From: a virus
Lineage: Duplodnaviria; Heunggongvirae; Uroviricota; Caudoviricetes
Virus record (IMG/VR): IMGVR_UViG_3300045988_137643
Coordinates: 28,377-92,376 of that record
DNA: 64,000 nucleotides
Direction: 5' to 3' (one strand)
The position numbers and the translations under genes are program-made. Of this stretch, positions 1,880-63,419 are shown in pieces (position 1 is the first letter of the stretch; every line of letters starts with the position of its first letter). The notes below the pieces were generated by a model. The model was not told the DNA's origin. It ran no database searches and was given only the letters and a program-made list of their open reading frames with translations.

Positions 1880-1961
1880 GTATCTGGATAAGTAAGTACT
1901 AATTTACTATTATTGTGGCGCTGACAGGATGTTAGCGCCTACTTATTTCAAGGATGAAACA

Positions 1962-2660
1962 ATGGGAATTAAAGCTGATATTCAGAGCTTATCTCCCTCT
2001 GCACTCATTGAGTTGTTCGTACTGGATATGTCGAACACAACTTCAGGGGGGAAGCTATTCTTCCACGCCGGAACAAACGAACTGATGCAACCGGTCGTCT
2101 GGCAAGGAGTGACATATGAGCCGTGGCCAATCAAAGCCTCAGGTTTTGACAAAACGGGCCAGGGAACGTTGCCACGTCCAAAAATTCAGGTATCGAACTT
2201 TGCCGGAACCGTCTCTGCGGAAGTTCAGGCAAACGACGATCTTGTTGGCTGCCGCATTATTCGCAAGATGACGCTGGCTCGCTTCCTCGATGCCGTTAAT
2301 TTTAAAGACGGCAACCCAACAGCAGATCCAAACCAACATTTCCCGGATGAAATGTGGTTTATCGAACAGAAAACTCTCGAAACTCATCAGGTTGTCGAGT
2401 TTGAATTGTCCAGTGTGTTCGATTTGATGGGGGTGCAACTGCCGTATCGTCAGATCATTAAAAACACCTGCCCGTGGAAATACCGAGGGCCAGAATGCGG
2501 CTATACCGGTCCATATTTCGACAAAAATAACCAGCAGACGTCTATGTCTGGTGCGGATTACTGCACAAAACGTTATGACGCCTGTAATGCGCGTCGGAAT
2601 TATTTTGCCAACGGAGTGATCCATTTTGGCGGGTTTATTGGAGCTACGCGATATGGGTAA
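1962..2660 (+). CDS. Minor tail protein, lambda gpL-like
   Basis: Position between M and K; internal ATG at 1962 with AAGGA RBS gives 232 aa (track start 1929). Confidence 0.5.
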   Translation: MGIKADIQSLSPSALIELFVLDMSNTTSGGKLFFHAGTNELMQPVVWQGVTYEPWPIKASGFDKTGQGTLPRPKIQVSNFAGTVSAEVQANDDLVGCRIIRKMTLARFLDAVNFKDGNPTADPNQHFPDEMWFIEQKTLETHQVVEFELSSVFDLMGVQLPYRQIIKNTCPWKYRGPECGYTGPYFDKNNQQTSMSGADYCTKRYDACNARRNYFANGVIHFGGFIGATRYG

Positions 2661-3450
2661 TAAAGCAATCCCTGAGCTTGGCTCTGATGTTATGCAGCAA
2701 ATCTATCTCTGCGCCATAAATCGCTACCCTAATGAAGCGTGTGGCTTTCTGGTTAGAACTAATGGCGACAAATATCGCTTTATGGAAGCGCGGAATGTTT
2801 CGGAGAACCCGCAGAACACTTTTGTAATGCACGTTGACGACATTATGGCGGCAGAGGATGCGGGTGATGTTATCGCAATCTGGCATTCACATACTGATGA
2901 ATCAGCAGAAGCATCTGATGCCGATCGTGCAGGCTGCGAAGCGACGGAAGTTCCGTGGATGATTCTGGCTATTCGCAAGAATGTTGAGGGAGATGCCCCT
3001 TTCCATTTTAGCGAGATGAATGTGATCACACCTGATGGTTTCGAAATGCCATACCTGGGCAGACCGTATGTATTTGGCGTATTCGATTGCTGGATGTTGT
3101 GTCGGGACTATTTGAAGCGTGAGTTTAACGTCGAACTAAACCCGAACGCACACCTGCATATTCCATCGTGGTACACCGGCGATAACGACATTCTAGACCA
3201 GAACTACCGAAACGAAGGATTGGTGCGTCTTGCGCCCGGAACAGAGCCTCAACGTGGGGACATCTTCTTTATCCAATACGGGAAAATGCCTGACCACTGC
3301 GCGGTTTATATCGGCGATGGAATGATTCTTCATCACCAGATCGACCGCCTAAGTTGTCGTGCTTATTACGGCGGGATGTATCAGAAACATACGACGCATC
3401 ACTTGCGTCACAGAGACTTGCTCAAGGGAGATGAGACGTGTCTGAGTTAG
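2653..3450 (+). CDS. Tail assembly protein K-like (MPN/JAMM plus NlpC/P60-like)
   Basis: JAMM-type motif HSHTDESAEASDAD; Cys/His-containing C-terminal half; track start 2626 is TTG, ATG at 2653 has GGAG RBS. Confidence 0.6.
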   Translation: MGNKAIPELGSDVMQQIYLCAINRYPNEACGFLVRTNGDKYRFMEARNVSENPQNTFVMHVDDIMAAEDAGDVIAIWHSHTDESAEASDADRAGCEATEVPWMILAIRKNVEGDAPFHFSEMNVITPDGFEMPYLGRPYVFGVFDCWMLCRDYLKREFNVELNPNAHLHIPSWYTGDNDILDQNYRNEGLVRLAPGTEPQRGDIFFIQYGKMPDHCAVYIGDGMILHHQIDRLSCRAYYGGMYQKHTTHHLRHRDLLKGDETCLS

Positions 3451-4028
3451 TTCATGTGCAGCTTGGCGGCCCTATGGCCAAACATTTTGGCCGCCACTGG
3501 CATCTAAAGGTGCGCAATACAAAACAGGCTCTGGATTTAATTGAGGCCAACAAGCCGGGGTTTAAAGCATGGATGAAGCGCAATATCAAAACCTATGACA
3601 GATACCACATCCAGATCACCAATAAACAGGGCCACAAGTGGTCTGTGGACGAGAGTGAATATCAGATGATGGGGCAGTCTGACAACATTGCCAAAATCCG
3701 CATTACCCCTGTTCCGCGAGGAAGTGGCGGATCTGCTTTTGGATGGTTTCAGACGGTTGTTGGAGCAGTGTTAATGGTTGCCTCGATATGGGTGCCCGCT
3801 CTTGCGCCTCTCGGTTTGTCACTGATGATGGGTGGTATAGCGCAAATCATATCTCCGCAAGCCACTAACGAAAGTGTGAGGCAGGCGGATAACTCGAACT
3901 CTTATTACTTCGATGGACCTCAAAACACAACAAACCAGGGGAACCCTGTACAGCTTATCTATGGTGAGGAAATTTTAGTTGGCTCACAGGTCGTGAGTTC
4001 TTCTATCACCATCGACCAGCTTATGTAA
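3438..4028 (+). CDS. Tail assembly protein I-like
   Basis: Position between K and J; hydrophobic C-terminal segment; GTG start with AGGGAG RBS. Confidence 0.45.
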   Translation: MSELVHVQLGGPMAKHFGRHWHLKVRNTKQALDLIEANKPGFKAWMKRNIKTYDRYHIQITNKQGHKWSVDESEYQMMGQSDNIAKIRITPVPRGSGGSAFGWFQTVVGAVLMVASIWVPALAPLGLSLMMGGIAQIISPQATNESVRQADNSNSYYFDGPQNTTNQGNPVQLIYGEEILVGSQVVSSSITIDQLM

Positions 4029-4045
4029 TCAAGGATTTTTTGGAC

Positions 4046-8770: not shown

Positions 8771-8862
8771 TGTAGAAAAAAATATTTACATCGGTAAAAA
8801 TAAGTATGTACTTACTTAATGGCGGGCAAGGATAGCTCGCCAAATCAAGGAGCATATTCAAC

Positions 8863-11800
8863 ATGTGGTACAGGGAAGGTACTATCACATTTACACAGGG
8901 TAGCAATACTCTGGTTGGGGTTGGGACAGCCTGGAACGTAACAGCTAATGGTGTGTTGCCGGGGATGATCGTCATTGGCCCCGACAATAAGCTGTATGAG
9001 ATCAAGCGCGTAACAAGCGATACGAATATTGTTCTCTCAGAACCTTATACCGGCGAAACTCAGTCTGAAGTTCCGTGCCGAATCATTACGACCTATGAAG
9101 GCGACTTAACACAGTTTAGCGCGCGCTTTACTGCGCTAATGTCGCGTATGTCGGCTGATTCCAAGTCCATGCGCAGTTGGTTGACTGCGCTGGATGAGGT
9201 GACAATCGAGCGTGAAGACGGTACAGAAGTGACCGTTAAGCCGCTGATGCAGATCGTCAACGAGCACAACGAAAACGTTGAGTGGTATAAAAATAACACC
9301 GATGCGATTGACGCTGCTGGCGACAAAGCTCGTGAGGCGGCGGCCAGTGCTGCCGCAGCAGCAGAAAGCGCCAATACCGCTGGAGAAAAAGCCTCTCAAG
9401 CGTCTCAAAGTGCATCCGCTGCGGCTTCCTCACAAAGTGCTGCAAGTGCGAGTGCAACTGCTGCGAAAAAATCTGAAACAAACGCAGAATCAGCATATGT
9501 CGCGGCAGCAGAATCAGCATCTGTAGCGTCGACTAAAGCATCGGAGGCGGCCACATCTGCGTCCAGTGCCTCTGCATCTAAGGATGCGGCTAAAGCATCA
9601 GAGACTAACGCGTCATCGAGTGCAAACGCGGCGGCATCATTTGCAACAGAAGCTGAAAATTCGTCTAAGGCAGCAAAAGCGTCAGAGACAAACGCAAAAG
9701 CATCTGAAACGGCAGCCGGGCAGAGTGCATCGTCTGCAAACAGTTCGAAATCTGCGGCAGAAGCGTCAGCAAGCGCAGCCTCAGCAAGTGCGGATAGTGC
9801 TTCATCAAGTGCAACTGCGGCAGGAAAATCTGCGGAAAGCGCGTCGTCATCAGCGACAACAGCTACCGCAAAAGCGACTGAGGCGACGAATCAGGCTACA
9901 GCCGCTAAAAATTCAGCATCGGCAGCAAAATCCTCTGAAACAAATGCAAAGACTTCAGAAGACAATGCCGCTTCCTCTAAGGCTGCAGCTGCTGAATCTG
10001 CAAGTTCTGCGTCAGCATCAGCCACCTCGGCGTCTGCTTCAAAGGATGAGGCGACCAAGCAGGCATCAGCTGCGAAGGGTAGTGCTTCAACGGCATCCAC
10101 GAAAGCAACAGAGGCGGCAGGCAGTGCGACGGCTGCATCTCAGAGCAAAACTGCTGCTGAATCCGCTGCGGCCCGTGCAGAAGCTGCCGCTGATCGTGCT
10201 GAAGAGATTGCCGGTGCAGTTGCGATGGAAGACGCAAGCCTTACAACTAAAGGTGTTGTGAAACTTAGCAGTGCTGTCGATAGCACCAGCGAATCACTGG
10301 CTGCAACTCCAAAGGCAGTTAAAGCTGCGAATGACAATGCGAATAGCCGATTGGCGAAGAACCAGAATGGTGCTGATATACCAGGTAAGGATACCTTCAC
10401 GAAAAATATTGGCGCTGGGCGAGCATTTGGAGGCTCTGTAAGCACAACAGCAGGAAACTGGACTACGGCACAGTTTGTCGAATGGTTGGACTCTCAAGGG
10501 GCGTTTAATCATCCGTACTGGATGTGTAAAGGCTCATGGTCGTATGGCAACAACAAAATCATTACTGATACTGGTTGTGGCGATATTCATCTTGCCGGGG
10601 CAGTAATTGAGGTAATGGGGATAAAGTCCGCAATGACGATCCGCGTTACCACACCAACAACATCTAGCGGTGGTGGTACTGCTAACGCTCAATTTACTTA
10701 TATTAACCACGGGACAGATTATTCTCCAGGCTGGCGACGAGACTACAATACAAAATACAAACCTACGCCATCGGATATAGGTGCATTATCAACATCAGGA
10801 GGGACGGTTTCAGGTCCGTTGTCTGTTACTGGTGGATTAACTGGTTCATTGAATGGCAATGCGAGTACCGCCACGAAATTGCAGACTGCAAGAACTATCG
10901 GCGGCGTGGCCTTCGATGGATCTGCGAACATAAATTTGCCTGGTGTAAACACGGCAGGTAATCAGAGCACTACTGGTAATGCCGCAACCGCTACAAAACT
11001 TCAAACGGCAAGAACGATTGGTGGCGTTTCATTTAACGGAACTGCCAACATCGACTTGCCCGGAGTTAACAAAGCTGGCAACCAAAGCACCACAGGTAAT
11101 GCTGCTACAGCTACTAAATTGCAGACAGCAAGAACCATCGGTGGTGTTAGCTTCGATGGCACTGCGAATATTAATTTGCCTGGTGTTAATGCTGCCGGTA
11201 ATCAGAACACTACCGGTAACGCGGCCACAGCGACCAAGTTGCAAACTGCTAGAACTATTAACGGGGTGTCGTTTAACGGCTCTGCGAATATTTCAATACC
11301 AACAATTACGTCCAGAGGACGCGTTACTGCGCTCACAGGTACAACACAAGGTGCTGCGACTGGATTGCAGATGTACGAGGCATATAACAATGGCTACCCT
11401 TCGACTTACGGGAATGTGCTTCATCTTAAGGGCGCAACGGCCGTTGGTGAAGGTGAGTTGTTCATAGGTTGGAGCGGTACAAGTGGCGCTCATGCACCTG
11501 TACATGTACGTTCGCGACGAGATACGGATACATCCAGTTGGTCTGAATGGGCGCAAGTTTATACGTCCAAAGACTCAATTCCAGGTGTCAATGCCACCGG
11601 TAATCAGAACACTACTGGCAACGCAGCCTCTGCAACGAAGTTGCAGACAGCCAGAACAATTGGAGGTGTGTCGTTTAATGGTACCGCCAATATTAACTTG
11701 CCGGGTGTTAATATAGCGGGTAATCAGAATACGACTGGTAACGCAGCTTCAGCCACGAAGTTACAAACGGCTCGTACTATCGGTGGTGTTAGTTTTAACG

Positions 11801-12519
11801 GTACAGCCAATATTAACTTACCTGGTGTGAATACGACCGGTAATCAGAACACTACTGGTAATGCTGCAACCGCCACAAAATTGCAGACAGCAAGGAAAAT
11901 TGCTGGTGTGGCGTTTGATGGCTCTGCCGATATTACTTTGACTGCGGCTAACCTTAATGCTTATACGAAAACTGAGGTAACAAACCTTCTAAGTTCCTAT
12001 GCAAGCAGATCATCACTGACAGGCTATAGTGGCAACCTGGATATTATCGCTGAAACACTGGTTGTCAAATCAGGCGGTAGTGGAGGGTTTGCTATATGGG
12101 ATATTGGCACAACTACTAGCGGTGCCAATATGTACATTGATCCAAACCCAGGTATCAATACAGTTTGGCGTTCAACATCTTCAAGGCGCTATAAAAAGGA
12201 TATTGAAACATTACAAGATCGATATGCTGATGAACTTTTGTCATTAAGACCTGTTTGGTATCGTTCAATTTGTCGAGGTGACCGAAAGGATTGGGGGTAT
12301 TACGGCCTTATTGCTGAAGAGGTTGGTGAGATTGCCCCGCAATATGTCCATTGGCGTGAACCAACAAATAATGATTCTCCAGAAGATATTTCCTCAAATG
12401 GTATGGTCGCTGAAGGGGTGATGTATGAGCGTTTGGTTGTACCACTCATTCATCATATTCAGCAATTGACCAAAAGGGTTGAGGAGCTTGAAACGAAGTT
12501 AAATTCACCTAAAGAATAA
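8863..12519 (+). CDS. Side tail fiber protein (lambda Stf-like N-terminal region) with C-terminal S74-type intramolecular chaperone
   Basis: Ala/Ser-rich heptad region with KASETNAKASETAAG-type units as in lambda Stf; 40-aa repeats; C-terminus SSRRYKKDIE...GLIAEEV typical of autoproteolytic chaperone domains. Confidence 0.8.
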   Translation: MWYREGTITFTQGSNTLVGVGTAWNVTANGVLPGMIVIGPDNKLYEIKRVTSDTNIVLSEPYTGETQSEVPCRIITTYEGDLTQFSARFTALMSRMSADSKSMRSWLTALDEVTIEREDGTEVTVKPLMQIVNEHNENVEWYKNNTDAIDAAGDKAREAAASAAAAAESANTAGEKASQASQSASAAASSQSAASASATAAKKSETNAESAYVAAAESASVASTKASEAATSASSASASKDAAKASETNASSSANAAASFATEAENSSKAAKASETNAKASETAAGQSASSANSSKSAAEASASAASASADSASSSATAAGKSAESASSSATTATAKATEATNQATAAKNSASAAKSSETNAKTSEDNAASSKAAAAESASSASASATSASASKDEATKQASAAKGSASTASTKATEAAGSATAASQSKTAAESAAARAEAAADRAEEIAGAVAMEDASLTTKGVVKLSSAVDSTSESLAATPKAVKAANDNANSRLAKNQNGADIPGKDTFTKNIGAGRAFGGSVSTTAGNWTTAQFVEWLDSQGAFNHPYWMCKGSWSYGNNKIITDTGCGDIHLAGAVIEVMGIKSAMTIRVTTPTTSSGGGTANAQFTYINHGTDYSPGWRRDYNTKYKPTPSDIGALSTSGGTVSGPLSVTGGLTGSLNGNASTATKLQTARTIGGVAFDGSANINLPGVNTAGNQSTTGNAATATKLQTARTIGGVSFNGTANIDLPGVNKAGNQSTTGNAATATKLQTARTIGGVSFDGTANINLPGVNAAGNQNTTGNAATATKLQTARTINGVSFNGSANISIPTITSRGRVTALTGTTQGAATGLQMYEAYNNGYPSTYGNVLHLKGATAVGEGELFIGWSGTSGAHAPVHVRSRRDTDTSSWSEWAQVYTSKDSIPGVNATGNQNTTGNAASATKLQTARTIGGVSFNGTANINLPGVNIAGNQNTTGNAASATKLQTARTIGGVSFNGTANINLPGVNTTGNQNTTGNAATATKLQTARKIAGVAFDGSADITLTAANLNAYTKTEVTNLLSSYASRSSLTGYSGNLDIIAETLVVKSGGSGGFAIWDIGTTTSGANMYIDPNPGINTVWRSTSSRRYKKDIETLQDRYADELLSLRPVWYRSICRGDRKDWGYYGLIAEEVGEIAPQYVHWREPTNNDSPEDISSNGMVAEGVMYERLVVPLIHHIQQLTKRVEELETKLNSPKE
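10830..11940 (+). repeat. About nine 40-aa (120 bp) tail-fiber repeats, interrupted at 11290-11570
   Basis: Repeated unit PGVN.(A)GNQNTTGNAATATKLQTARTIGGVSFNGTANINL. Confidence 0.8.
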
Positions 12520-13449: not shown

Positions 13450-13683
13450 ATGATGAAAAGATTATTTCTAACAATAGCTGTTGTTCTCTCTCTTACTGGC
13501 TGCCAGAAATTGCCGACACCTATATGTTATGGTGAGGCTATCATTGGTGGACAGGAGACAGTCATACCTATATATGCTGTTAAAAAGGTTAACGGCTATA
13601 CCTTATACAAAGCGGGTAGCATCTATAACTGGCGATGGGTTGGAGTAGGTGCTTTCTCATCTGTGCGTTGCAATGCTGAATGA
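13450..13683 (+). CDS. Small lipoprotein, candidate superinfection-exclusion protein (Cor/Llp-like position)
   Basis: Signal peptide plus lipobox LSLTGC; 77 aa; directly after receptor-binding genes. Confidence 0.4.
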   Translation: MMKRLFLTIAVVLSLTGCQKLPTPICYGEAIIGGQETVIPIYAVKKVNGYTLYKAGSIYNWRWVGVGAFSSVRCNAE

Positions 13684-13764
13684 TAAGTAAGTACACACCT
13701 ACAACAAGAAGGTGAAATGTGATATAAATCCGCCATCCCGATTTGACTTTTCATGGAGGAAAAC

Positions 13765-17729: not shown

Positions 17730-17922
17730 CAACTTCCGGTCTGGCAGCTTCAATCAGAACCTGTTTCTGTATTTAAATAATAAGTAACTTATTAAATATA
17801 TATACGGAAGCAGGTCTTTTAAAAGACACCCACCAGAACAACTCCCTTCCGTTTTCACTTCCAAAAACTGACACCAGTCGCTATCATCCGCTCATTGTGA
17901 TAAGTAAGTAACTACCTACCAG

Positions 17923-21319: not shown

Positions 21320-21394
21320 CAAGTGCCGCTAAAATAAGTAGATGATTACTTATCTTTCTGTAAGAATACTTTCATCTGTTAGCTAGGAGTTGGT

Positions 21395-22177: not shown

Positions 22178-22232
22178 TCTCTCCGCGCGTCGTTTTTTAC
22201 GCAAATAACGATAGGTAAGTACAAGATTATTT

Positions 22233-24845: not shown

Positions 24846-25623
24846 AAACACAATAATAAGTATTTACTTACTTATTTTTTATGTATAAGATGACTTTGTT
24901 TTCGTTGAGACGCGACTGTTTGAACTTAAATACAAGTGCAAACGAAGAAGTCTATCTGGCAGTAGCCTAATAAGCCAAACACCAGCGAGGTCAGTTTCCA
25001 GCCTCGTTACCGAAATGGGACACACTGAGCGAGTGTGATTACAGAACGCAGGAGGGAACATTCATGTTCCCTCCGATGAAGTAACAGAATGGGCGGTTGG
25101 TATATTTTCAACTCCATATGACTCCCGGATTCTTAGCCACTGACCGTCCATCCTGTTACGTCATTTTGTTCAATTATGTCGTTTATACTGGGTTAAAAAG
25201 CGGCGACGTAGCCCGGCTGGTATGGTTAGCCAGCACACAACGTTGAGGCCATTACATTTTTATCAATTCTAAGGTTCTATCCACAGAAAAACCGGCGAAC
25301 GTTGATATGTAACATGTTGGGCAAACATTCAATCGGAGTAGTGGCCTCAACGTTGTGAAGACAGGATAGTTGTGTAGGTTTAACCACTGTTGCCATTGGT
25401 GCCTGTTTTCACAACAAATGATTCCATACATCACATTGTATAAATTACAAAGTAGGTGCTGTCCTCAGAAACATCATCTACTTAAAGAGTTTGCCTTCTA
25501 CTATTGAGCGAAGTCGAAAGCGTCTGGCACTAACGAAAAGTGCAAGTAGCGGTGCGTTTCCTGGCAGAAACTAAACCGTCGCGATTGGCACTGTTGAGTA
25601 ATAAATACTGGCAGTGCCGAATT

Positions 25624-25698
25624 GATGGTGTAGCTCAGCGGTAGAGCAGTTGGCTGTTAACCAACTGGTCGGTGGTTCGAATCCACCCACCATCGCCA
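25624..25698 (+). tRNA. tRNA-Asn (anticodon GTT)
   Basis: Cloverleaf read by hand: 7-bp acceptor gatggtg/caccatc, D-arm GCTC...GAGC, anticodon loop ctGTTaa, T-arm GGTGG-TTCGAAT-CCACC, encoded CCA. Confidence 0.8.
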
Positions 25699-25703
25699 AT
25701 TTA

Positions 25704-25790
25704 GGGGAGTTAGTCCGTAGGGGTAGCGGGGTAGACTGTAAATCTACTGTCATTGCGACTCGGGTGGTTCGACTCCATCACTCCCCACCA
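25704..25790 (+). tRNA. tRNA-Tyr (anticodon GTA), long variable arm
   Basis: Acceptor ggggagt/actcccc, anticodon stem GTAGA/TCTAC with loop cuGUAaa, T-loop TTCGACT, encoded CCA. Confidence 0.7.
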
Positions 25791-25794
25791 AATT

Positions 25795-27701: not shown

Positions 27702-27876
27702 CTAAACCTCTACGAAAATCTTACCTATAAGACAGTCCTTAATGTAATCTGTTTTCTCCACTACTTCAAATTACCTCACAATCTACCGATAGGTGACTAC
27801 CTACTTACATACAAAGTTGATTTATAGTATAGTCCCTCTGTTGCGTATTAGTATTTTTAAAGGCATTTGTTAAGTT

Positions 27877-28333: not shown

Positions 28334-29437
28334 ATGAAAAATAGCTTTGACAGAGCACGCGCTGCGGAGAACACCTCAAAAGAGGCGATTGAGTATCTCG
28401 AAAGAGCATCTCAAATGCAGGCCGTTATGATCTCGCAGGTTAGCATTGATATGAGATTCTCGGACGCATTCATGTTATTCACTCGCTTATCTCTGCTGAT
28501 AACCAGACGTCGGCCAGAGATCGCTGTTCATTGTATTTTGATACATGTTTTGCCGCACATTGCCGATGTAAAAGTAAGTGACATTAATAGGTTCATGGTG
28601 AACCAACTGGTCAACCCACTAATACTGGATGGCAAAATTGTTATGGGCCGCCGCGTTTTCTCTCTGATGAAGCAGTTCCTTAGCTGGTGCGCCTTCCAGG
28701 GGATGATAGACGTGTCACCGTTAAACGATATGTCACTAAACAAAGTTGCCGGTGGCGCAAAGCCCACACCTCGCGAGCGGAAGCTGACCGACGCAGAGGT
28801 ATGGGTGTTCTGGAATATATGGGACTACTTCAATGTGTGCGCTGGTACAAAATGGGCGGCCAGGCTGTGTCTTGTATCAGCAAGACGACCTGACGAAGTA
28901 CTGCGGGCTAAAAAAAGTGAGTTCAATCTTAAGCGTGGGGTTTGGAATCAAGGCAAGAGAAACAAGTCAGCACGTGAGCATTCGCTGCCTTTAAGCACAT
29001 TAATGCGCACATGCATTGAAGAGTTGTTCGAATACGGTAAAGACAGCCAGTGGCTCGTGCCTTCGAATAAAAAAATCGGGAAAGACCTTCCTATGTCTAA
29101 AGTGGCAATAGCCCAGGCATTACGTCGTATTCTGGAACGACCAGAACTGATGGAGCTTGAGCCATTTACACCCCGAGATTTGCGCCGTACTGCGCGTAGT
29201 TACTTCCCAGCATTAGGCATAAGCCAGGAGGTATCACGCAAAATCATGAACCACAGTCTTGAGGGGATAGATCGGGTCTACGACCGGCACGATTATATGG
29301 ACGAGATGCGAGACGCCTTAGAAAGTTTCTCGACGTACATCGCATCAATCGTAGAGCAACCGGATTTAGACGAAATTGACCACAAATTCAAGGGAGATCG
29401 TCTATCAACAGAGCTTATTCGTGTAAATTTTTCATAG
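28334..29437 (+). CDS. Tyrosine recombinase (phage integrase family)
   Basis: 367 aa; C-terminal catalytic-region residues (DLRRTARS, HSL, VYDRHDY). Confidence 0.7.
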   Translation: MKNSFDRARAAENTSKEAIEYLERASQMQAVMISQVSIDMRFSDAFMLFTRLSLLITRRRPEIAVHCILIHVLPHIADVKVSDINRFMVNQLVNPLILDGKIVMGRRVFSLMKQFLSWCAFQGMIDVSPLNDMSLNKVAGGAKPTPRERKLTDAEVWVFWNIWDYFNVCAGTKWAARLCLVSARRPDEVLRAKKSEFNLKRGVWNQGKRNKSAREHSLPLSTLMRTCIEELFEYGKDSQWLVPSNKKIGKDLPMSKVAIAQALRRILERPELMELEPFTPRDLRRTARSYFPALGISQEVSRKIMNHSLEGIDRVYDRHDYMDEMRDALESFSTYIASIVEQPDLDEIDHKFKGDRLSTELIRVNFS

Positions 29438-29818
29438 AGACTTTATGGCCTCAACAACCTTTTGTGATGCGCCTTTCTCTTTACCGAATCGCTCGTTATA
29501 TGCAGCAAGAACCTGTTTTTCGTCCTCGTTAAGAGGAGCGGTGCCTTCTTTGTATAAAAATGCTGCGAGTTCAGGTTGGCGTTCTTCCAGCACCATCATC
29601 ATAAGACGACTTGGCTCAATACCCAGCGCCAGCGCCAGCGGACGAACCTTATCGATAGGCAAAGGAATTTTGCCACTTTTAATTAAAGAAAGGTTGTTGG
29701 CATTTTTATAACCAATAAGTCTGGCTATTTGGGCCTGACTCATAGGTGAGGATTCAATCAGCCCTGCGATAAAAGCAGCATAGCGACTTTCTATAAATTC
29801 AATCTTGTTGTCAGACAT
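29432..29818 (-). CDS. XRE-family HTH repressor (CI-like)
   Basis: HTH SQAQIARLIGYKNANNLSLIKSGK; divergent from downstream + strand genes across an AT-rich 250-bp region. Confidence 0.6.
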   Translation of the reverse strand: MSDNKIEFIESRYAAFIAGLIESSPMSQAQIARLIGYKNANNLSLIKSGKIPLPIDKVRPLALALGIEPSRLMMMVLEERQPELAAFLYKEGTAPLNEDEKQVLAAYNERFGKEKGASQKVVEAIKSL

Positions 29819-29849
29819 TGTTACAACCTTTGCGCGTTTAATTCTCTCT

Positions 29850-29863
29850 GGTAAGTGCTTACC
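29850..29863. promoter_or_regulatory. Candidate operator palindrome GGTAAGtgCTTACC
   Basis: Perfect 14-bp palindrome in the divergent region next to the repressor gene; related to the genome-wide TAAGT..ACTTA motif. Confidence 0.4.
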
Positions 29864-30069
29864 GATATTACATCAAAGGTTAGGGTTGTAAAGCTATTAT
29901 CATTTTTTTCGGCAGGCACTTGTAAGACCAAGCAAAGGTCCATGCATGGAGAAAAACTAGCCCAAAATAGGTAAGAAAATTAACTTGCATCTGATATAGA
30001 TGTATTCAGTATTGATACAAATTTTAGTAGTATTCCTTACCATAGTATAAGTTAGAATGGATTGATTGA

Positions 30070-30380: not shown

Positions 30381-32489
30381 ATGTCTAAAAAACGTTCCAT
30401 CAAAGAGGTTCAGGACTTCCGTGACAGTGTAAAACGAGTAGTCGCTCTCCTTTCAGGTAAAAACATCCCTGTTGCAGAACGAGGGGACGACGCTTATGTA
30501 CGCTATAACGATGATGGAGAGCCAATTCTCGTAAACATCCCATCAATCCCGGATAACGCAACACCGGCATTGATGAATGCTGTGCGCGGATTTCTCGATC
30601 ATGAGGTTGCTCACATTTTGTTTACCGATATTCGTGTGTCCAACAAAATGAGAGAAAAAGGACGCGTTCCTTCCTGGTCGCTATGGAATGCCTTAGAAGA
30701 CGTGTTCATCGAGCGAAAAATGGGGCAGGTCTTTAACGGAACAAGACGTAATCTGATGGCAACTCAGCGCCTTATAATCGAAAAAGTCTTTAAACCAAAG
30801 GCTTCAGAGGCTATTGCTTATTGTGGCAAAGATCAGCGCGCGCTTTTTCTAAACTTCTTTCTCTGTCCGGTTGTAAGAGCCTGGGATGGCCAAGCACCGT
30901 TCGTAGATTTCATGGATGAATATTGGCCTGTCATTGAGAAACCAATTTCATTATTAAAAGAACATGGTATCGATGTGGCCGTGCGTAACATGTCTTGCAC
31001 CGAGGATTGTGTAAAGGTGGCTGCGACCATAGCTAAGCTCCTCAAAGACACTGAAAGTGAAAGCAAAGGTAAGGAGTCAGCTCCGGGAAAAACTTCCGAT
31101 CCTTCAGACGCTGACCAGACGGATGCCTCTGGAGAAAACAATGAAGACAACGAAGATCATGAGACACCCTCAGAGATAGATAATCACAAATCTATCAAAT
31201 CAGAATCACATAGTAAGCACAAGCATGATAATAACGACAGTGATGATTCAGATAATTCTGAATCATCAGAAACAATATTCGATGATACAGAAAATGATAA
31301 AGAGGTATCAGATTCTGATGCTTCTGATAACGCGGCGTCAGAATCATTAACCGCTGACCACGAAAAAAGAAAAACGACAGAAGACGGCTCTTCAGATATT
31401 CCAACCCCGTCAAAAATGAGTCTGGAAGAGGCTTTAGAGGAGCTGGATAGCATAGAAGATGAAGTCGGAGGCATGACAGAAGATGCTCTATCCGAAACGA
31501 TTAAAAGCGAGTTAACAGAAAGCTCGAAAAGCGAATACAGGCCATACAATCGCTCATACGACTTCATCGGCTCGATTGATCAGGCAGAAGCCCATATCAA
31601 ACGGCTTATTAAAACATTCTCCGATATTGATTTAGGAGGATATCCAATCAGCCGCTATCGCATCGTTCCTGAAGGCAACCAGCTCTTCGACAAATATATT
31701 GAAAAGCATCTTTCGTCAGGTGTTTCGTCGACGCTGGCAAAAGACCTGGAGCGAGCAATAGCAAGCAGAAACAGAGTTCAGTTTATACCGGGCCAGCGTC
31801 GGGGGCGCATTCATGGTTCTAGTATCTACAGATTAGCAATGAATGATGATCGCGTGTTTCGTAAAAAAGAAGAATCTAAAGCCGTTAACGCCTGTGTTCA
31901 ACAAGTGATTGATTTATCAGGTTCAATGAGTGGCGAAACGATAAAACTAGCTCTTGCAAGTGCATATACCATCGCCGATGCTCTTGATCGAATAAATGTT
32001 CCCAACATTATCACCGGCTTCACTACATTTGGCAGTCATCTGGCAGCGATAGAACTTAAGGCTGTCAAGTATGAGTTCTCTCGCTTTGAATCTTTAATGC
32101 TACCTATCATCAAAAATTGGAATGAAAAGGTAAATTCTCGCGAAGTTCGCTCACGTATGGGGTGCGTAGGCTACACATTCCCACTTCTTAATAACGTGGA
32201 TGGTGAAAGCATAGCCAGCCTTGCATCGTTATTTTCCGGTCGCATGGAGGACAGGAAGATCATGCTTGTTCTGAGCGATGGCGAGCCGCTGGCTGTTGGG
32301 AGAGGTTTTGACGCTCATTTGCGTTCGGTTGCGAAGCAAATTGAAACGCAGACTGACATTGATTTGATGGCAATTGGCATCATGACTGACGCACCGGAGA
32401 GATTTTACGCAAATCATGCCCTGGTAACGAGCGTTGATAGTCTTGGTTCATCTGTAGTTACTGAACTATCTCGTATCATTTTGAAGTGA
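30381..32489 (+). CDS. vWA-domain protein (CobT-like) with acidic low-complexity linker
   Basis: MIDAS motif DLSGSMSGE; long D/E/S-rich region; paired with downstream AAA+ ATPase. Confidence 0.6.
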   Translation: MSKKRSIKEVQDFRDSVKRVVALLSGKNIPVAERGDDAYVRYNDDGEPILVNIPSIPDNATPALMNAVRGFLDHEVAHILFTDIRVSNKMREKGRVPSWSLWNALEDVFIERKMGQVFNGTRRNLMATQRLIIEKVFKPKASEAIAYCGKDQRALFLNFFLCPVVRAWDGQAPFVDFMDEYWPVIEKPISLLKEHGIDVAVRNMSCTEDCVKVAATIAKLLKDTESESKGKESAPGKTSDPSDADQTDASGENNEDNEDHETPSEIDNHKSIKSESHSKHKHDNNDSDDSDNSESSETIFDDTENDKEVSDSDASDNAASESLTADHEKRKTTEDGSSDIPTPSKMSLEEALEELDSIEDEVGGMTEDALSETIKSELTESSKSEYRPYNRSYDFIGSIDQAEAHIKRLIKTFSDIDLGGYPISRYRIVPEGNQLFDKYIEKHLSSGVSSTLAKDLERAIASRNRVQFIPGQRRGRIHGSSIYRLAMNDDRVFRKKEESKAVNACVQQVIDLSGSMSGETIKLALASAYTIADALDRINVPNIITGFTTFGSHLAAIELKAVKYEFSRFESLMLPIIKNWNEKVNSREVRSRMGCVGYTFPLLNNVDGESIASLASLFSGRMEDRKIMLVLSDGEPLAVGRGFDAHLRSVAKQIETQTDIDLMAIGIMTDAPERFYANHALVTSVDSLGSSVVTELSRIILK

Positions 32490-32584
32490 TTAAAACAGCC
32501 TTAACGATAAGTAACTACTTATGATAGTTAATGATATATTTATATAAGAAGTTGAACGCTCATTAGAGAACAAAGGAAAAACGC

Positions 32585-38076: not shown

Positions 38077-38193
38077 TTTTTGATAGATAATAAGTAAGTA
38101 CTGATCTATCATTTAACAGCTCGAAAGAGCCACGAATGAACGAAAGCCCAACGCGCATAGCGCCATCGGCCAAATCACAACAAGGAGAAACAC

Positions 38194-41563: not shown

Positions 41564-41568
41564 ACACA

Positions 41569-41593
41569 AGGCGTCCACAGGACGCCTTTTTTA
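41569..41593 (+). terminator. Rho-independent terminator
   Basis: AGGCGTCC-aca-GGACGCCT then TTTTTT. Confidence 0.6.
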
Positions 41594-41655
41594 TCTCTTG
41601 AAAATATATAAGTACTTACTTATCATTTTCGCATAACAACCACATAGGAAAACAC

Positions 41656-45626: not shown

Positions 45627-45841
45627 GTTTACAGTAAAATTTATATAAGTTAGTATCTACCTATCATGAAGATTTTTATTGAATACTTGTTACTCATCGT
45701 GTCAGTAGCTTTTGTCATCGACTGCATTTTCACTGGTGTCATTCGTAAAGTCTTTTCCCCGGTGAACGACGTAGTAATAAACGCTTTGGCTATCGTGCTC
45801 GTATTTAATTCAGCATTTGATGTAATCAAAGAGGTGGCAGC

Positions 45842-46389: not shown

Positions 46390-46397
46390 ATACAAAC

Positions 46398-46428
46398 TGA
46401 CTGCGGCACGTTCCGCAGTCATATTTCA
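46398..46428 (+). terminator. Hairpin terminator candidate
   Basis: TGACTGCGG-cacgtt-CCGCAGTCA then tatttc. Confidence 0.4.
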
Positions 46429-46436
46429 TAGTCGTC

Positions 46437-46971
46437 ACCGCTGACAGCATACACAATCAACTACCGCTGATAGCATATCGAGAGTCTATCTCACCGCTCA
46501 CAGCATACTTTACTCGATTTTTTTACCGCTGACAGCATACTTAAGACATTGCATGAATAATGTGTACCGGTATGGGTATAACCAGAACAAAATTACCGCT
46601 GGCAGCATACGAAGGTCTGACATATACCATTAATTACCGCTGATAGCATATCCAAACAAAAATTCCTCAATAAAACACCGCTGACAGCATACGTTCTATC
46701 AGGGAGCAGCAGGCAATAAATGCCTTTCACTACAAGCAATCAGCGCAATAGCAATAGAATGTTAGTGAGCGCAAACCTATATGGAATGCACTCTTCGAGG
46801 TTAGTAACCACTGGGGAGGTATGACAGAGCATTGAGTGGTGATAGATGATTTACCGCTCACAGCATACGTTCATCTCACTATACCGCTGGTAGCATATCT
46901 TTAACCGTTCACAGCATACTTTTCAGAAAAATAGCCGCTGATAGCATACATTTCACCGCTGACAACATATC
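46437..46971. repeat. Iteron array, about 12 direct repeats of ACCGCTGACAGCATAC (incA-like, 3' of repA)
   Basis: Twelve 16-bp copies with 1-3 substitutions each, irregular spacing, same orientation. Confidence 0.85.
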
Positions 46972-48064
46972 AAAGCAGTTTGAGACTATTGGAAAGGATC
47001 TCAATCATCTTGATATTTTCAGGCGTCAAATTCTGCGAAAGTTCGGTTATCTTGTTGATAATGTTCTGTTTGGCATCAATTTCCCCAGCTTTCTCATCTG
47101 GTTTTTTGGGTTCGATGTCTTCAGGTTTTGGCGGTGCGACTTTAAGTTTTGGATTGCGGCTGTGAATCTGGATATAGATCGACCGCCCTCGCTTAATCTC
47201 GCTGTATTCGAGATAGCCCAAATCTTGGAGAGCTTTTAAGCCGTTACGTATAGTCTGATTCTGCGAGCTGACATTCCTGCTGCTCAAATTTAGTCGCGCA
47301 CGCAATCGAGCAAGCGATACCGGCGCAGGCTTGGTTGGAAGACTTTCGATGAAGGTGTACAGAGCCTGTGCTGTTTCTTTGCGTGGTAGCTTATTGATGA
47401 CCTTTAACTGCAAAAGAACCTTATGATCAAAGCGATATAGTTCGGCCAGCTTCGGTTCTGCATAGAACACCACCGTATCTTTCTGCTCGTTGTAGTCCAC
47501 ACTATTGATTAGGTGCACCATCAGAAGCGAGATCTTGTTAGAGCCGTCGACGTTCTTTTCTTCATACGTTCTCTGGAAAGACAGAGTTGTACGCATGATC
47601 TTCAAAAGACTGTTTGTAAGCCGGTCGCGGAGTGTTTTGCGGATCTGTGACGATGGATAGCCACAAAACTTCGCAAATTTCGTGATGCTTAACTCGACAC
47701 GACCGTTAGGTTCGCCGTATTCTGCCAGCGAACGCACAACGCCCACCCACGTTTTGAAATCATGATCCATGTCGAGACGAGGACCGGTTATCTTGATATC
47801 GGAATAGCCTTCAGAACGGGCTACTTCGAGCTGAACAAGCTCCTTTGAAGCATCGATCTCATTTGGCTTGTTACGCTTGCTGTATTTTGTCCCCTTGAGC
47901 GTGGGCACGAACAACCCCAGCCGCATCAACGCAATTGGTTGGACTGTATTGTTGCTATTAGGGACAAGTTCCCCTGTGTACAATTCAAGGGAACCTTCTT
48001 CAAAGTTGTCGAGATTATCTTCTACTTCTTTGTTATTTTTACCTTTTTTATTTTTTGTGGACAT
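46970..48064 (-). CDS. repA: RepA-type iteron-binding replication initiator
   Basis: Minus-strand ORF flanked on both sides by iterons; start set at internal Met (MSTKNKKGK) because the track start at 48184 overlaps the upstream iterons. Confidence 0.65.
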   Translation of the reverse strand: MSTKNKKGKNNKEVEDNLDNFEEGSLELYTGELVPNSNNTVQPIALMRLGLFVPTLKGTKYSKRNKPNEIDASKELVQLEVARSEGYSDIKITGPRLDMDHDFKTWVGVVRSLAEYGEPNGRVELSITKFAKFCGYPSSQIRKTLRDRLTNSLLKIMRTTLSFQRTYEEKNVDGSNKISLLMVHLINSVDYNEQKDTVVFYAEPKLAELYRFDHKVLLQLKVINKLPRKETAQALYTFIESLPTKPAPVSLARLRARLNLSSRNVSSQNQTIRNGLKALQDLGYLEYSEIKRGRSIYIQIHSRNPKLKVAPPKPEDIEPKKPDEKAGEIDAKQNIINKITELSQNLTPENIKMIEILSNSLKLL

Positions 48065-48085
48065 GTGGACACCTTTGTCATTCAA

Positions 48086-48186
48086 CCGCTGACAGCATAC
48101 TTGATTTGCCGCTGGCAGCATACCAAAAACAGTTGGCAGCATACGGCGAACCGTTGACAGACTATCAATTACCGCTGGCAGCATAC
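48086..48186. repeat. Five iterons upstream of repA (incC-like)
   Basis: Copies of (A/G)CCGCTG(A/G)CAGCATAC in the repA promoter region. Confidence 0.8.
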
Positions 48187-57542: not shown

Positions 57543-58412
57543 ATGAACTTTACCAAACTGACTGACCACCTGAAACTTGCCACCGATCGACTCATTGGAT
57601 TTAAGCCAGAACCATATGAGTTGCATGAAGGTCATGGTGTAGCTACTGAAAGTATTTACAAGATGGTCGATCAGTTTCATGAACTCTTCCAGCATCCGAG
57701 ACGCGTTATGCCGACACCAGAGCTGCTTCGTCTCCGTGCAAGCCTGATTCATGAAGAAGCTGTAGTGGAAGGTATTCCAGCCGCAATGAATGGGGATATT
57801 GAGCAACTGCTGGATGCAATGGCCGACTTTTTATACGTTGGTGTTGGTACGATGGTCGCCATCAAAGGTGGTATTTCTACCGGCATGACCTATTACACGC
57901 AGGAACAGAGCATTGATCGCTTTATGCAGACAATTTTTGTGCCTGGTAACACTGTTTTCGATGATATGGCAATGCCATTTCAGGAAGCTCGTGAGGCGTC
58001 ATGTATGCTCGAAGAGCTGGCAGATAAACTTGAGAACAAGACTGTTAAGGATTCTGAGCTGATTCAGGAACTGCGCCGTGTAATGAACAAAATCTATGTG
58101 GCGTGCATGATGACCTATCGACTGGCTGATTTCCTCGGTATCAATGTCGTCGAACTGGTTGGCGAAATTCATCGGTCCAACATGACAAAATTATGGCCTG
58201 CAGATGCCGAAGAGCGTCGCCATGCTGTGGCCAACTGCAAATACGACTCTTCTGACCTGGGATTTCGCCATGCTGATGGCACCGATAAGATGATCGGTTT
58301 TCGAATTTCCGATGGAAAGATTCTGAAGTCTCCAACCTATAGTGATGTCGATTTATCCTCCTTTGTTGAGCAAGCTAAAGCCTCAGCAATGTACGGAATG
58401 ATCAAAAAATAA
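57543..58412 (+). CDS. Hypothetical protein, possibly an all-alpha NTP pyrophosphohydrolase (MazG/dimeric dUTPase-like)
   Basis: Acidic helical motif LIHEEAVVEGIPA...DIEQLLDAMADFLYV; sits between nrdB and thyA. Confidence 0.3.
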   Translation: MNFTKLTDHLKLATDRLIGFKPEPYELHEGHGVATESIYKMVDQFHELFQHPRRVMPTPELLRLRASLIHEEAVVEGIPAAMNGDIEQLLDAMADFLYVGVGTMVAIKGGISTGMTYYTQEQSIDRFMQTIFVPGNTVFDDMAMPFQEAREASCMLEELADKLENKTVKDSELIQELRRVMNKIYVACMMTYRLADFLGINVVELVGEIHRSNMTKLWPADAEERRHAVANCKYDSSDLGFRHADGTDKMIGFRISDGKILKSPTYSDVDLSSFVEQAKASAMYGMIKK

Positions 58413-58480
58413 TTGTAGGTAGTTATCTATCCGTGTATATTGCATTGGCGCGTTAAATTTCTGAAACAACTATTCGTTTT

Positions 58481-58507: not shown

Positions 58508-58583
58508 TCTGTCTGGTCTTGTTCGCTCAATAAATGTAAACTCACTTAATGAATAAGTAGTTACTTATCTTTGTGAGGTTTTT

Positions 58584-59687: not shown

Positions 59688-59688
59688 T

Positions 59689-62267: not shown

Positions 62268-62272
62268 AGCAA

Positions 62273-62312: not shown

Positions 62313-62427
62313 AAGAACAGTCGCCTTTCAATCATTTCCTGCCTGTATTTAATACTTTTCCGCCTGATAGGTTTAGTCAAAATGTAGCCATCGAAACGCA
62401 AATGTAACCAAACAGAAGGAGACTTAC

Positions 62428-63237
62428 ATGAGTTCGGTTGAAAATGTAATGACAAATGATGATCTGGACGAACTGACAGCTATGTTGCAATCACTTGATG
62501 AACCGGTAAAAAAAGCTGCACAGGTTGAGAATACTGATGATATTGACGATCTGCTTCTAGGCCTCGATGCTGGCGTAGCCATGAGTTCTGATGATGTTGC
62601 CGAAGAACTGTTCAATGAAGAAAAAGCAGGTGATTTCAGCTCCGCTTTAAATGAGTTGGAGTTAGCGCATGAGCCTATAAACGTAATTAACACTGAAAGT
62701 GGTGAAGCTGCCGAAAACGAGCCAGAACAATTGGGATTTATTGAGGTTGAAGATTGTGTTGAGGTTAATGATGAATTAAAAGTTCAACAGTCAAATGATA
62801 GCAATACAAATAAAAAAGCTCGTACTGCAAGAGGTCCTCGTTTTACTTTAAGTGATAAAGATGATTCGTTTTTCAATAAAGCAGGCTTAGAAAAAGATAT
62901 TTTCTTAGACGCTTACGAAAACGCGCCTGTCAAAGCAAAGGATAAGATATTAAACCTTCTTAATTGGTTTAGCGGAGGTCCAGATATTAGTGTTTACACG
63001 GTAATTTCCATGAGACACCTTCTCACAGAAAAGAAGGCTACAAGTAATAGTATTAAGATTGCTTTAATGAGCAATCCAGAAAAACCGTATCCGCTTAACA
63101 CTGCGTCAACTCAGGCTGGGCAAATGATGGCTGTATTTCCAGCTACAGGAATTGCTGTTAGAGACGGTGGAAATCTAACATTGAACGAAGAATCACCGAT
63201 CGTTAAGAAGTTTGTCGCGGAGTACACTATTGGATGA
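62428..63237 (+). CDS. Hypothetical protein with strongly acidic N-terminal region
   Basis: First ~110 aa D/E-rich; directly upstream of the Dam methyltransferase gene. Confidence 0.3.
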   Translation: MSSVENVMTNDDLDELTAMLQSLDEPVKKAAQVENTDDIDDLLLGLDAGVAMSSDDVAEELFNEEKAGDFSSALNELELAHEPINVINTESGEAAENEPEQLGFIEVEDCVEVNDELKVQQSNDSNTNKKARTARGPRFTLSDKDDSFFNKAGLEKDIFLDAYENAPVKAKDKILNLLNWFSGGPDISVYTVISMRHLLTEKKATSNSIKIALMSNPEKPYPLNTASTQAGQMMAVFPATGIAVRDGGNLTLNEESPIVKKFVAEYTIG

Positions 63238-63312
63238 CGTTCCCCTACTGAAAATAAAGCCCATAGAGAGCTTTATAGTGCTGGGTAAGCTAACCCATAC
63301 CCAGCACCACAA

Positions 63313-63358
63313 AAACGCGCCAGAGAGCTTCTTGTTCGCATTTCTGGCGCGTTTTATT
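63313..63358 (+). terminator. Rho-independent terminator
   Basis: CGCGCCAGA...TCTGGCGCG stem then TTTTATTT. Confidence 0.5.
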
Positions 63359-63419
63359 TGATTGCCATACATAAAATCAAATGCAAAAATAGGTAATCAC
63401 ATACCTATCGAGAAAGAAG

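Follow-up and report, generated by a model that had tools for sequence, protein, structure and literature searches.

A recurrent 20-bp palindrome as the candidate operator of a genome-wide repression network in SSU5-type phage-plasmids

The intergenic regions of a 64,000-nucleotide stretch of a Caudoviricetes genome (IMG/VR record IMGVR_UViG_3300045988_137643, positions 28,377 to 92,376; referred to here as the window) contain a recurrent A+T-rich palindrome, which we consider to be, with more confidence than doubt, the operator of a genome-wide repression network read by the XRE-family helix-turn-helix (HTH) protein encoded at 29432-29818. The region 28000-50000 is 97-99% identical to Escherichia coli plasmids of about 109 kb and to the phages PhiR41_1, CMS-2020a and Cyrano (pLF82) and approximately 80% identical to Salmonella phage SSU5, and on the basis of this identity the window is a piece of an E. 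coli SSU5/pHCM2-type phage-plasmid. A first-pass annotation of the sequence had offered either phage-specific promoters or a global operator network as the meaning of the palindromes. Our analysis supports the latter, in that a symmetric palindrome lies over promoter regions, no site was found upstream of parA or repA in a scan of the window and the motif can be linked to a named XRE repressor.

The recurrence of the palindrome was borne out, with 16-18 copies (about 17) in 64 kb. The exact form ATAAGTA-N(2-6)-TACTTAT occurs five times in the window against 0.00 in shuffled sequence, and inverted ATARGTA/TACYTAT half-sites with at most two mismatches in total were found 15, 18 and seven times at spacers of 2, 6 and 10 bp respectively, where approximately 0.4 per spacer are expected by chance; 46 of 48 such matches are intergenic. 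Iterative alignment gave a 20-bp palindrome of 19.5 bits, ATA[A/G]GTAAGT-ACTTAC[T/C]TAT with the hyphen at its centre, whose consensus halves are ATAAGTAAGT and ACTTACTTAT and which can also be written ATAAGTAAGTACTTAC[C/T]TAT. In order to avoid circularity a matrix was trained on SSU5 sites only and then run on the window, where it returned 21, 14 and 12 sites at 12, 16 and 20 bits compared with 0.64, 0.04 and 0 in shuffles, so that the motif is far more frequent than in shuffled sequence (14 sites of at least 16 bits against 0.04). Eighteen of the 19 sites scoring at least 13 bits are intergenic, in a window of which the intergenic share is 10%. Clusters of sites are also present elsewhere in the family, approximately 28 of them in SSU5 and 23 in PhiR41_1, and there are about 30 sites per genome.

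The palindrome has an internal period of 4 bp (TAAG-TAAG-TAC-TTAC-TTA), and the 16-bp and 20-bp forms represent one site read in two registers. Spacers of two to six nucleotides had been described earlier, and while both forms are indeed present they are better seen as registers of a single 20-bp site, the spacers appearing variable because the half-sites repeat in a 4-bp register. Sixteen of the 17 positions listed in the first-pass annotation are genuine, whereas the one at 17778 is weak (approximately 13 bits) and is part of an inverted repeat of about 55 bp at 17760-17814. The perfect palindrome GGTAAGTGCTTACC at 29850, noted as a relative of the main motif, is its central core (14 bits) and is kept at the same place in Klebsiella pneumoniae and pHCM2. 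The sites precede start codons as had been said, at gaps that range from 1 to 112 bp, and one lies approximately 770 bp before a tRNA cluster.

With a view to the nature of the site, 77 distinct copies from enteric relatives were compared. Their two halves deviate from the consensus independently, with 237 one-sided changes against 10 compensatory ones, and the proportion of complementary mirrored positions (0.687) is no higher than after shuffling right halves among sites (0.695 +/- 0.009). A common combination, A at position 4 with C at position 17, would break the pairing of a hairpin. In a symmetric scan the gene-proximal and gene-distal halves were equally conserved (mismatch counts, p = 0.61). 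Since the halves vary independently without compensation and the site is symmetric relative to gene direction, the motif is consistent with binding by a dimeric protein to duplex DNA and with neither a hairpin nor a directional promoter element.

Several of the sites overlap sigma70-like matches, at 1885, 27804, 38084, 41598, 45640 and 53834, and for others an extended -10-like element follows 4-8 bp or 17 bp downstream and is kept in SSU5, pHCM2, Klebsiella and Photorhabdus despite diverged flanks. The centre of the palindrome falls at approximately -20, approximately -30 or -38 to -42 relative to the inferred transcription start, and at the XRE promoter it covers that start. Distances between palindrome and -10-like element range from -3 to +17 bp and at the orthologous holin promoters differ by 6 bp between enterics and Photorhabdus. 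Such free positioning is usual for repressors and unusual for activators, and this variable placement relative to the promoter favours a repressor. Generic sigma70-like matches are rarer than in shuffles (12 against 27.8, 17 against 30.5 and 20 against 31.8 per 20 kb). G+C-rich hairpins were also observed directly after, not before, an operator or promoter at 1917-1939 and 53863-53884 and in SSU5 (locus L003, approximately 5497). For the hairpins after the sites at 1888 and 53837 we infer that read-through transcripts would terminate and locally started ones would escape, as the inferred start lies in the 5' arm of the hairpin.

The gene proposed to encode the binder of the palindromes (29432..29818, minus strand) corresponds to CYRAN_45, annotated as a 'putative repressor'. 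Its product has a weak match to HTH_19 and matches phrog_8, 'transcriptional regulator'; Pfam gave no peptidase S24 domain and comparison with solved structures gave no match. In an LF82 lysogen its homologue is expressed approximately 10-fold above background (PMC9928086, Table 1), and in the first 50 kb of Cyrano no gene directly after a strong site appears among the lysogen-expressed genes of that study. Homologues are found in 961 plasmids, 92 of them from Enterobacter, with the same host distribution as the phage-plasmid family. A sigma70 promoter is predicted for the gene at 29865..29892 (minus strand, TTTACA-16-TAATAT), and in K. pneumoniae and pHCM2 its hexamers are kept while the spacer has diverged, with the core palindrome directly following. 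In the window this core-only site, GTAAGTGCTTAC (29847..29866), stands directly downstream of the predicted -10 and scores 14.1 bits with a perfect 12-mer core, making it a candidate autoregulatory operator of the XRE gene.

All seven related groups examined have one or more sites at the promoter of XRE or in its switch region. The elements from E. coli, K. pneumoniae (including pMB7868_2), pHCM2 and Klebsiella oxytoca each have one conserved XRE-promoter site, Photorhabdus pPAU1 has two strong sites in its switch region (20.0 and 20.8 bits) and the Acinetobacter element has two sites at XRE. A clade of viral contigs from IMG/VR (L013, L028, L031, L044, L056, L058, L063 and L085; approximately 87-121 kb, approximately 60% G+C) was also noticed, which is distantly related to SSU5, its DnaE, helicase and tail proteins being shared at 35-40% identity. 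These contigs carry the A+T-rich operator GTAAGTAAGTGCTTACTTAC at 3-8 sites per 10-14 kb, including one upstream of the XRE homologue and others upstream of the next two genes. The network thereby appears to extend from Enterobacterales to Acinetobacter and this uncharacterised high-G+C clade.

The half-site can be set beside the recognition helix of the XRE protein in the same elements. The E. coli element of the window and pHCM2 have the helix NANNLSLIKSG and the half-site ATAAGTAAGT, and the same half-site accompanies the close variant ANNLSMIKSG in Photorhabdus pPAU1 and NANNISLIKSG in K. pneumoniae pMB7868_2, whose XRE protein is 48% identical to that of E. coli. The K. oxytoca plasmid has NVNTLSIIKAG and the half-site ATATGTATGT, with an XRE protein 46% identical to that of pMB7868_2 and 46.5% identical to that of the window, and in Acinetobacter NQNMVSFIVRG is found with ATTAGTAAGC. 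The K. oxytoca plasmid carries approximately 25 variant sites with the changed base in both registers (in unbiased counts, eight dyads against 0.05 expected), and in each element the change in the operator variant is mirrored in both arms. The operator variant thus tracks the XRE recognition helix and not the host or the overall relatedness of the XRE proteins, its independence of the host resting on the occurrence of two operator types in Klebsiella.

SSU5 keeps the sites and lacks the integrase-XRE module and any XRE homologue, which raised the objection that XRE is not the binder. We rejected this objection as SSU5 is a very recent deletion derivative that lost the module: across the junction it is 98-99% identical to Enterobacter plasmids, and the SSU5 junction occurs in none of 822 related plasmids, in which the match breaks at that point. 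The integrase-XRE module accompanies the plasmid state and lytic growth can do without it, and if XRE is the binder it should therefore be a repressor and not an essential activator.

We accordingly picture an XRE protein that would bind the 20-bp palindrome, probably as two overlapping dimers given the half-sites in 4-bp register, at sites that cover the -35, spacer or -10 of the promoter-like sequences heading tail, lysis, replication, nucleotide-metabolism and tRNA operons. In the low-copy plasmid state bound repressor would silence the lytic operons, with a block to read-through also possible, and the parA and repA regions, being free of sites, would stay on. The weaker core-only site past the XRE -10 would provide negative autoregulation, and loss or inactivation of the repressor would turn all modules on together. 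As the XRE protein has no peptidase domain, induction would likely proceed via another factor, for which an antirepressor is a speculative example. In this scheme the sites, their enrichment, symmetry, placement and conservation, the sites close to XRE, the helix-motif link and the SSU5 deletion are observations, and XRE binding, repression as the direction of effect and the stoichiometry are inferences.

Several points weigh against XRE as the reader. The helix-motif link comes from about seven lineages with a single clear change of type, and the XRE switch region of the enteric elements has no more than a core-only site of 14 bits. Between XRE and a divergent 70-amino-acid (aa) open reading frame (ORF) lies a unique perfect palindrome, CATCTGATATAGATG (29988-30002), kept in pHCM2 and not in K. 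pneumoniae, which could be the true XRE operator or could serve a second switch protein, and another element-encoded protein such as the product of that divergent ORF might itself be the binder. The sites at 17900, 22211, 45645 and 63389 abut a ribosome-binding site (RBS) or start codon, and several sites are followed rather than preceded by terminator-like hairpins, both of which are awkward for simple promoter occlusion. Finally, the E. coli-type and high-G+C-type consensus sequences are nearly identical to the operators of SlmA-like TetR genes and to the SlmA site itself.

This last resemblance leads to the alternative that fares best, although we regard it as unlikely, namely that the palindromes are sites of the host nucleoid-occlusion factor SlmA, a TetR-family protein. 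SlmA would repress lytic promoters at low copy, and on amplified DNA it would either be titrated, giving derepression, or form dispersed SlmA-DNA complexes that block the FtsZ ring and division. E. coli SlmA binds GTGAGTACTCAC, in whose half-site G, T, A and G at positions 1, 2, 4 and 5 are critical while position 3 may be any purine and position 6 any pyrimidine, a G to A change at position 3 giving a Kd of approximately 60 versus 50 nM (PMC3020112). The core of the phage motif, GTAAGTACTTAC, obeys this rule. The 20-bp SlmA consensus oligonucleotide AAGTAAGTGAGCGCTCACTTACGT (PMC4423959) scores 16.4 bits on the phage matrix and the natural SlmA-binding site (SBS) SBS17 scores 11.7 bits; 15 window sites have at most five mismatches to the SlmA 20-mer consensus against 1.69 in shuffles, by which measure SBS17 has three mismatches and SBS12 five. 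It has been reported that an SBS between -35 and -10 is repressed by SlmA, that a multicopy SBS plasmid together with SlmA causes a lethal division block and that approximately 500 SlmA dimers face 24-52 SBS per nucleoid (PMC3573117). SlmA is reported to bind as a dimer-of-dimers (PMC5519180), which the 4-bp register would suit.

A scan of species-representative genomes with the consensus of the high-G+C clade, GTAAGTAAGYRCTTACTTAC, returned 93 loci from very diverse phyla where by our own estimate approximately two are expected. A TetR-family gene lies within 300 bp in 65 of the 93, the palindrome typically standing between a TTGACA -35 and the -10, and one of these regulators has SlmA structures as its closest solved relatives. 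Twenty-eight loci, for example in Psychrobacter, have no TetR match within 300 bp and 27 have none in the locus examined. Operators of this sequence at SlmA-like TetR genes were seen in Acidobacteriota, Bacillota, Bifidobacterium, Bacteroidota, Planctomycetota and Methanobrevibacter (loci L131-L223). The phage-plasmids encode no TetR-like gene of their own, a point in favour of a host reader: none was found in any phage-plasmid locus by tblastn at E values up to 1 or with a profile of 42 TetR N-terminal regions at E values up to 10, a profile which gave 25 matches in 30 control loci.

Set against SlmA, approximately 36 sites persist in a phage-plasmid of Acinetobacter baumannii, which has no SlmA orthologue (PMC7481262, PMC13060281), and no TetR gene is present in the 103 kb of that element examined. 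The approximately 25 sites of the K. oxytoca plasmid have T in place of the SlmA-critical A in all registers, in a host whose SlmA specificity was assumed to be unchanged as it is of the same genus as K. pneumoniae. Enrichment under the 12-bp core rule (G-T-R-A-G-Y/R-C-T-Y-A-C) is modest, with one perfect site in the window (29851-29862), six sites with at most one mismatch against 1.57 and 34 with at most two against 21.5, and in most sites one inner half-site is perfect and the other is not. Conservation of the phage motif is highest at its TA positions (2-3 and 18-19), which fall outside the 12-bp SlmA core, and chromosomal SBS are mostly intragenic and not promoter elements (PMC3020112; PMC5519180). 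One 12-mer with a single mismatch to the core rule, GTGAGTGCTCGC (20288-20299), was seen inside the primase gene, outside the main motif family.

Host SlmA as the universal binder, once our leading idea, was demoted by the sites in SlmA-less Acinetobacter and by the ATATGTA variant in a Klebsiella host. As the motif persists without SlmA and changes without a change in SlmA, its reader must be encoded by the element. If that reader is XRE, the likeness to SlmA sites is either coincidence or mimicry, and cross-binding of SlmA to the E. coli-type sites is possible. We give a low probability to the further idea that the E. coli-type operator is also occupied by SlmA at approximately 30 promoter sites per copy, as a copy-number-sensing co-repressor or as a means by which phage DNA inhibits division. 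Were this so, SlmA at approximately 500 dimers per nucleoid would be titrated on amplification and the XRE operator would owe its sequence to mimicry of, or competition for, a site of the host cell cycle. The likeness is in any case a testable link between a plasmid-prophage and host division control.

Phage-specific promoters, the other proposal of the first-pass annotation, would make the palindromes elements at which a phage-encoded activator or sigma-like factor binds in place of the -35 and turns on all lytic operons, as in P1 Lpa late promoters or T4 MotA boxes; we consider this improbable. Most sites do have a poor -35 and a -10-like hexamer 0-17 bp downstream, several with a conserved extended -10, the scarcity of generic sigma70-like matches leaves room for non-canonical promoters and an Acinetobacter relative carries an annotated sigma-70 family gene next to dnaE. 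The motif is however symmetric and shows no gene-direction bias, its distance to the -10-like element is not fixed and shifts by 6 bp from one holin promoter to its orthologue, a site covers the start at the XRE promoter and one intragenic site is conserved. Among ten window ORFs analysed with Pfam none was recognised as a sigma or RNA polymerase gene, and a tblastn search with the sigma-like protein from Acinetobacter gave no homologue in the enteric elements. On symmetry, variable geometry and the missing enteric homologue we rejected a directional promoter for a phage sigma factor or polymerase. The Acinetobacter gene itself lies on plasmid NZ_CP061522.1 (L007, 15101-15766) between the cobS-like gene and dnaE and has a weak PHROG sigma match.

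A role as RNA or DNA structure, be it a terminator hairpin, an RNase III or processing site or a translational operator perhaps bound by a FljA-like protein, we consider very improbable. Several sites do lie 0-15 nt from an RBS or start codon, and a FljA-like protein is among the core products of the elements; in Salmonella the target of FljA is the leader of the fliC mRNA. There is however no compensatory covariation and the pairing-breaking A and C combination is common, one site heads the non-coding region before the tRNA cluster, and the earlier judgement that the sites are not terminators holds, as they have neither G+C-rich stems nor T runs and a terminator scan calls separate hairpins nearby but not the sites. 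With no covariation, no terminator features and no Rfam family besides tRNAs in a scan, the hairpin, terminator and RNA-element readings were rejected. The FljA-like protein (PF03614) is also an unlikely binder, as there is no site at the promoter of its own gene and no match was listed from the motif-bearing Acinetobacter plasmids. The gene, 'repressor of phase-1 flagellin' (PF03614 at 1e-68), is found outside the window in PhiR41_1 (L002, 37192-37710) and is a core gene of enteric SSU5-type elements, present in 832 plasmids, among them plasmids from the non-motile hosts Klebsiella and Y. pestis.

Equally improbable are dispersed parS-like centromeres of a partition system, for which speak the many palindromes on a low-copy plasmid-prophage and the precedent of phage N15 with its dispersed centromere sites near promoters, and against which stand a copy number (approximately 30) far above that of known plasmid centromeres, the tie of the sites to lytic-operon promoters and the XRE switch and a better candidate in the inverted repeat at 17760-17814 just downstream of parAB. 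This repeat of about 55 bp, CCTGTTTCTGTAT-(A+T-rich palindrome)-ATACGGAAGCAGG, stands just downstream of parA and a 119-aa gene and is a candidate dispersed centromere or other cis site. The window has one copy, PhiR41_1 three (L001, approximately 17130; L002, approximately 13448 and 45595) and SSU5 at least two (L003, approximately 33469; L004, approximately 28319).

The individual sites are best followed along the gene order of the window, which was assigned from the annotation of relatives and Pfam. The plus strand carries nearly all genes, and the order runs from tail and lysis genes to parA, then helicase, primase and ligase, a tRNA cluster and glutaredoxin, an integrase and the convergent XRE gene, cobT- and cobS-like genes and dnaE, the gp32-like single-stranded DNA-binding protein gene, an exonuclease and a RecA-like gene, repA with its iterons, and finally an SbcCD-like pair, nrdAB, thyA, DHFR and dnaQ. 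Bit scores are those of the SSU5-trained matrix unless another is named. The operator ATAAGTAAGTACTAATTTAC (1888..1907, 22.3 bits; SSU5 orthologue at L003 15589) lies between the minor tail genes M and L, where it overlaps the sigma70-like TGGATA-17-TATTAT at 1885 and is followed by the hairpin at 1917-1939. The operator at 8800..8819 (25.6 bits; SSU5 orthologue at L003 21937) is upstream of the tail fibre gene 8863-12519. That at 13683..13702 (25.4 bits) precedes the holin and lysis genes, which start from 13753, and has a conserved extended -10-like element, TGATATAAA, 17 bp downstream; in a four-genome alignment the palindrome is kept within diverged flanks.

Among the replication genes, the operator at 17900..17919 (24.6 bits), conserved in SSU5, pHCM2 and K. 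pneumoniae, stands 5 bp before the RBS of a 249-aa gene preceding the DnaB-like helicase. Upstream of a 260-aa gene the operator at 21334..21353 (20.3 bits) was seen in the cross-genome footprint, and a conserved extended -10-like element, TGTAAGAAT, begins 5 bp downstream. The site at 22211..22230, upstream of a 160-aa gene and the DNA ligase gene, is weaker, with only its left half well conserved (14.7 bits; 17.5 bits with our first matrix). An operator of 25.7 bits (24856..24875), conserved in SSU5 and K. pneumoniae, heads the 770-bp non-coding stretch leading to the tRNA cluster at 25624-25870, and another of 19.0 bits (27789..27808) precedes the glutaredoxin gene 27877-28122 (Pfam) within a divergent region, its right arm forming the -35-like CTTACA of a CTTACA-18-TATAGT match. 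A weak site inside the cobT-like gene (31176..31195, 14.5-16.9 bits) is strong at the orthologous positions in SSU5 (L003 43661, 21.7 bits) and K. pneumoniae (L006, 24.5 bits). The operator upstream of the CobS/MoxR-like ATPase gene (32503..32522) scores 15.8 bits in the 20-bp frame, contains the exact 16-bp form at 32507-32522 and appears in the cross-genome footprint.

The operator at 38090..38109 (25.0 bits; cross-genome footprint) is upstream of the gp32-like gene (Pfam, 6e-65) and occupies the spacer and -10 of a TAGATA-17-TATCAT match at 38084. Directly after a terminator (41568-41588) the operator at 41604..41623 (26.4 bits) likewise occupies the spacer and -10 of TTGAAA-17-TATCAT at 41598. 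The operator at 45645..45664 (22.4 bits; SSU5 orthologue at L004 8074) ends 1 bp before the ATG of a 59-aa ORF, and that at 49153..49172 (27.0 bits; cross-genome footprint), upstream of a metallophosphoesterase/exonuclease operon, has a conserved extended -10-like element 6 bp downstream (TGnCATAAT in relatives). Upstream of nrdA the operator at 53837..53856 (26.4 bits) lies within a TTGATA-17-TAACAT match at 53834, and the hairpin at 53863-53884 follows, with the predicted transcription start inside its 5' arm. The thyA gene has an operator at 58549..58568 (19.5-20.1 bits), with the exact 16-bp form at 58553-58568, and a weaker second site at 58411-58430 (13.1 bits). The last operator, at 63389..63408 (23.6 bits; orthologues in PhiR41_1 and SSU5), lies 11 bp before the start of a DNA-methylase-like gene.

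Other repeated elements were also observed. A second palindrome, AAACAAnTTGTTT, occurs at 16654, 18684, 30349, 42757 and 56280, at the genes parA, helicase, cobT, a 274-aa gene and nrdB, standing 16-35 bp before the start and in the case of nrdB across it. None of these five intergenic regions has a copy of the main palindrome. In the K. oxytoca plasmid 17 copies of the dyad AAACA-3-TGTTT were counted where 0.24 would be expected, and AAACAAnTTGTTT may mark a second regulon or a translational operator. Approximately a dozen iterons, ACCGCTGACAGCATAC, at 46390-46969 and 48230-48300 flank repA (46970-48184, minus strand), and a cluster of the GATC-rich repeat GGATCTAT lies upstream of it. Outside the window a LexA-box-like sequence, TACTGTACAGATAAACAGTA, is found upstream of a umuD-like gene in PhiR41_1 (L002, approximately 26330).

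SSU5-type phage-plasmids include pHCM2 of Salmonella Typhi, relatives of pMT1 of Yersinia pestis and many Klebsiella, Enterobacter and E. coli plasmids, some of which carry resistance genes. Literature searches returned no description of this motif, of SSU5-type regulation or of the choice between plasmid maintenance and lytic growth in these elements. The present analysis suggests a regulatory map consisting of approximately 30 operators, a candidate master repressor, a probable autoregulatory site and at least three operator or immunity types. The lytic behaviour of SSU5 would be explained by its missing repressor module, and the operator types would predict mutual immunity among elements.

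The first-pass annotation held that no such network had been described for this kind of element, which stands for this phage-plasmid family, whereas the kind of network is itself classical, and by analogy the one proposed here would be of the same functional kind as those of P1 C1, phiC31 CIR and L5. C1 is the repressor of the P1 plasmid-prophage and has many operators over approximately 94 kb at lytic promoters, leaving the maintenance genes free, and the SSU5-type network would resemble it in having dispersed operators at putative promoters of lytic functions of a plasmid-prophage with the maintenance genes likewise free. The P1 operators are however asymmetric, 17 bp long and bound by a monomer, and the P1 late genes use a separate activator, Lpa, whereas here one symmetric 20-bp palindrome stands before early and late modules and the small XRE-family candidate is unrelated to C1. 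In the Streptomyces phage phiC31 one intergenic palindromic operator (CIR) is similarly repeated and is bound by the phage repressor c, but the CIRs are 17 bp long and lie mostly in the early region of a phage that integrates, in contrast to approximately 30 sites with half-sites in 4-bp register in every module of a plasmid-prophage of approximately 108 kb. The stoperators of L5 and Bxb1 (bound by gp71 and gp69) also number approximately 30 and occupy short intergenic gaps, some of them not at recognisable promoters, and a roadblock role is by analogy possible for those of our sites that lie away from recognisable promoters. Stoperators are nevertheless asymmetric 13-bp sites in fixed orientation to transcription, and a stoperator assignment was ruled out by the symmetry of the present motif, whose left and right mismatches do not differ (p = 0.61) and which shows no orientation bias.

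The SBS and TetR operators are alike in sequence (GTAAGTGAGCGCTCACTTAC compared with ATAAGTAAGTACTTACTTAT or GTAAGTAAGTGCTTACTTAC), share the 4-bp register and can also be placed between -35 and -10, but the elements have no TetR gene and the motif is present without SlmA and differs where SlmA presumably stays the same; as the motif does not follow the host factor, a bona fide set of SBS was ruled out. The arrangement around XRE is that of a lambdoid CI/Cro switch, with a small HTH gene on one side, a short ORF and the early replication operon running divergently on the other and one or more operators between them, and negative autoregulation as in that switch is likely. Unlike the lambdoid switch, the candidate repressor has no peptidase S24 domain and its putative operators are spread genome-wide.

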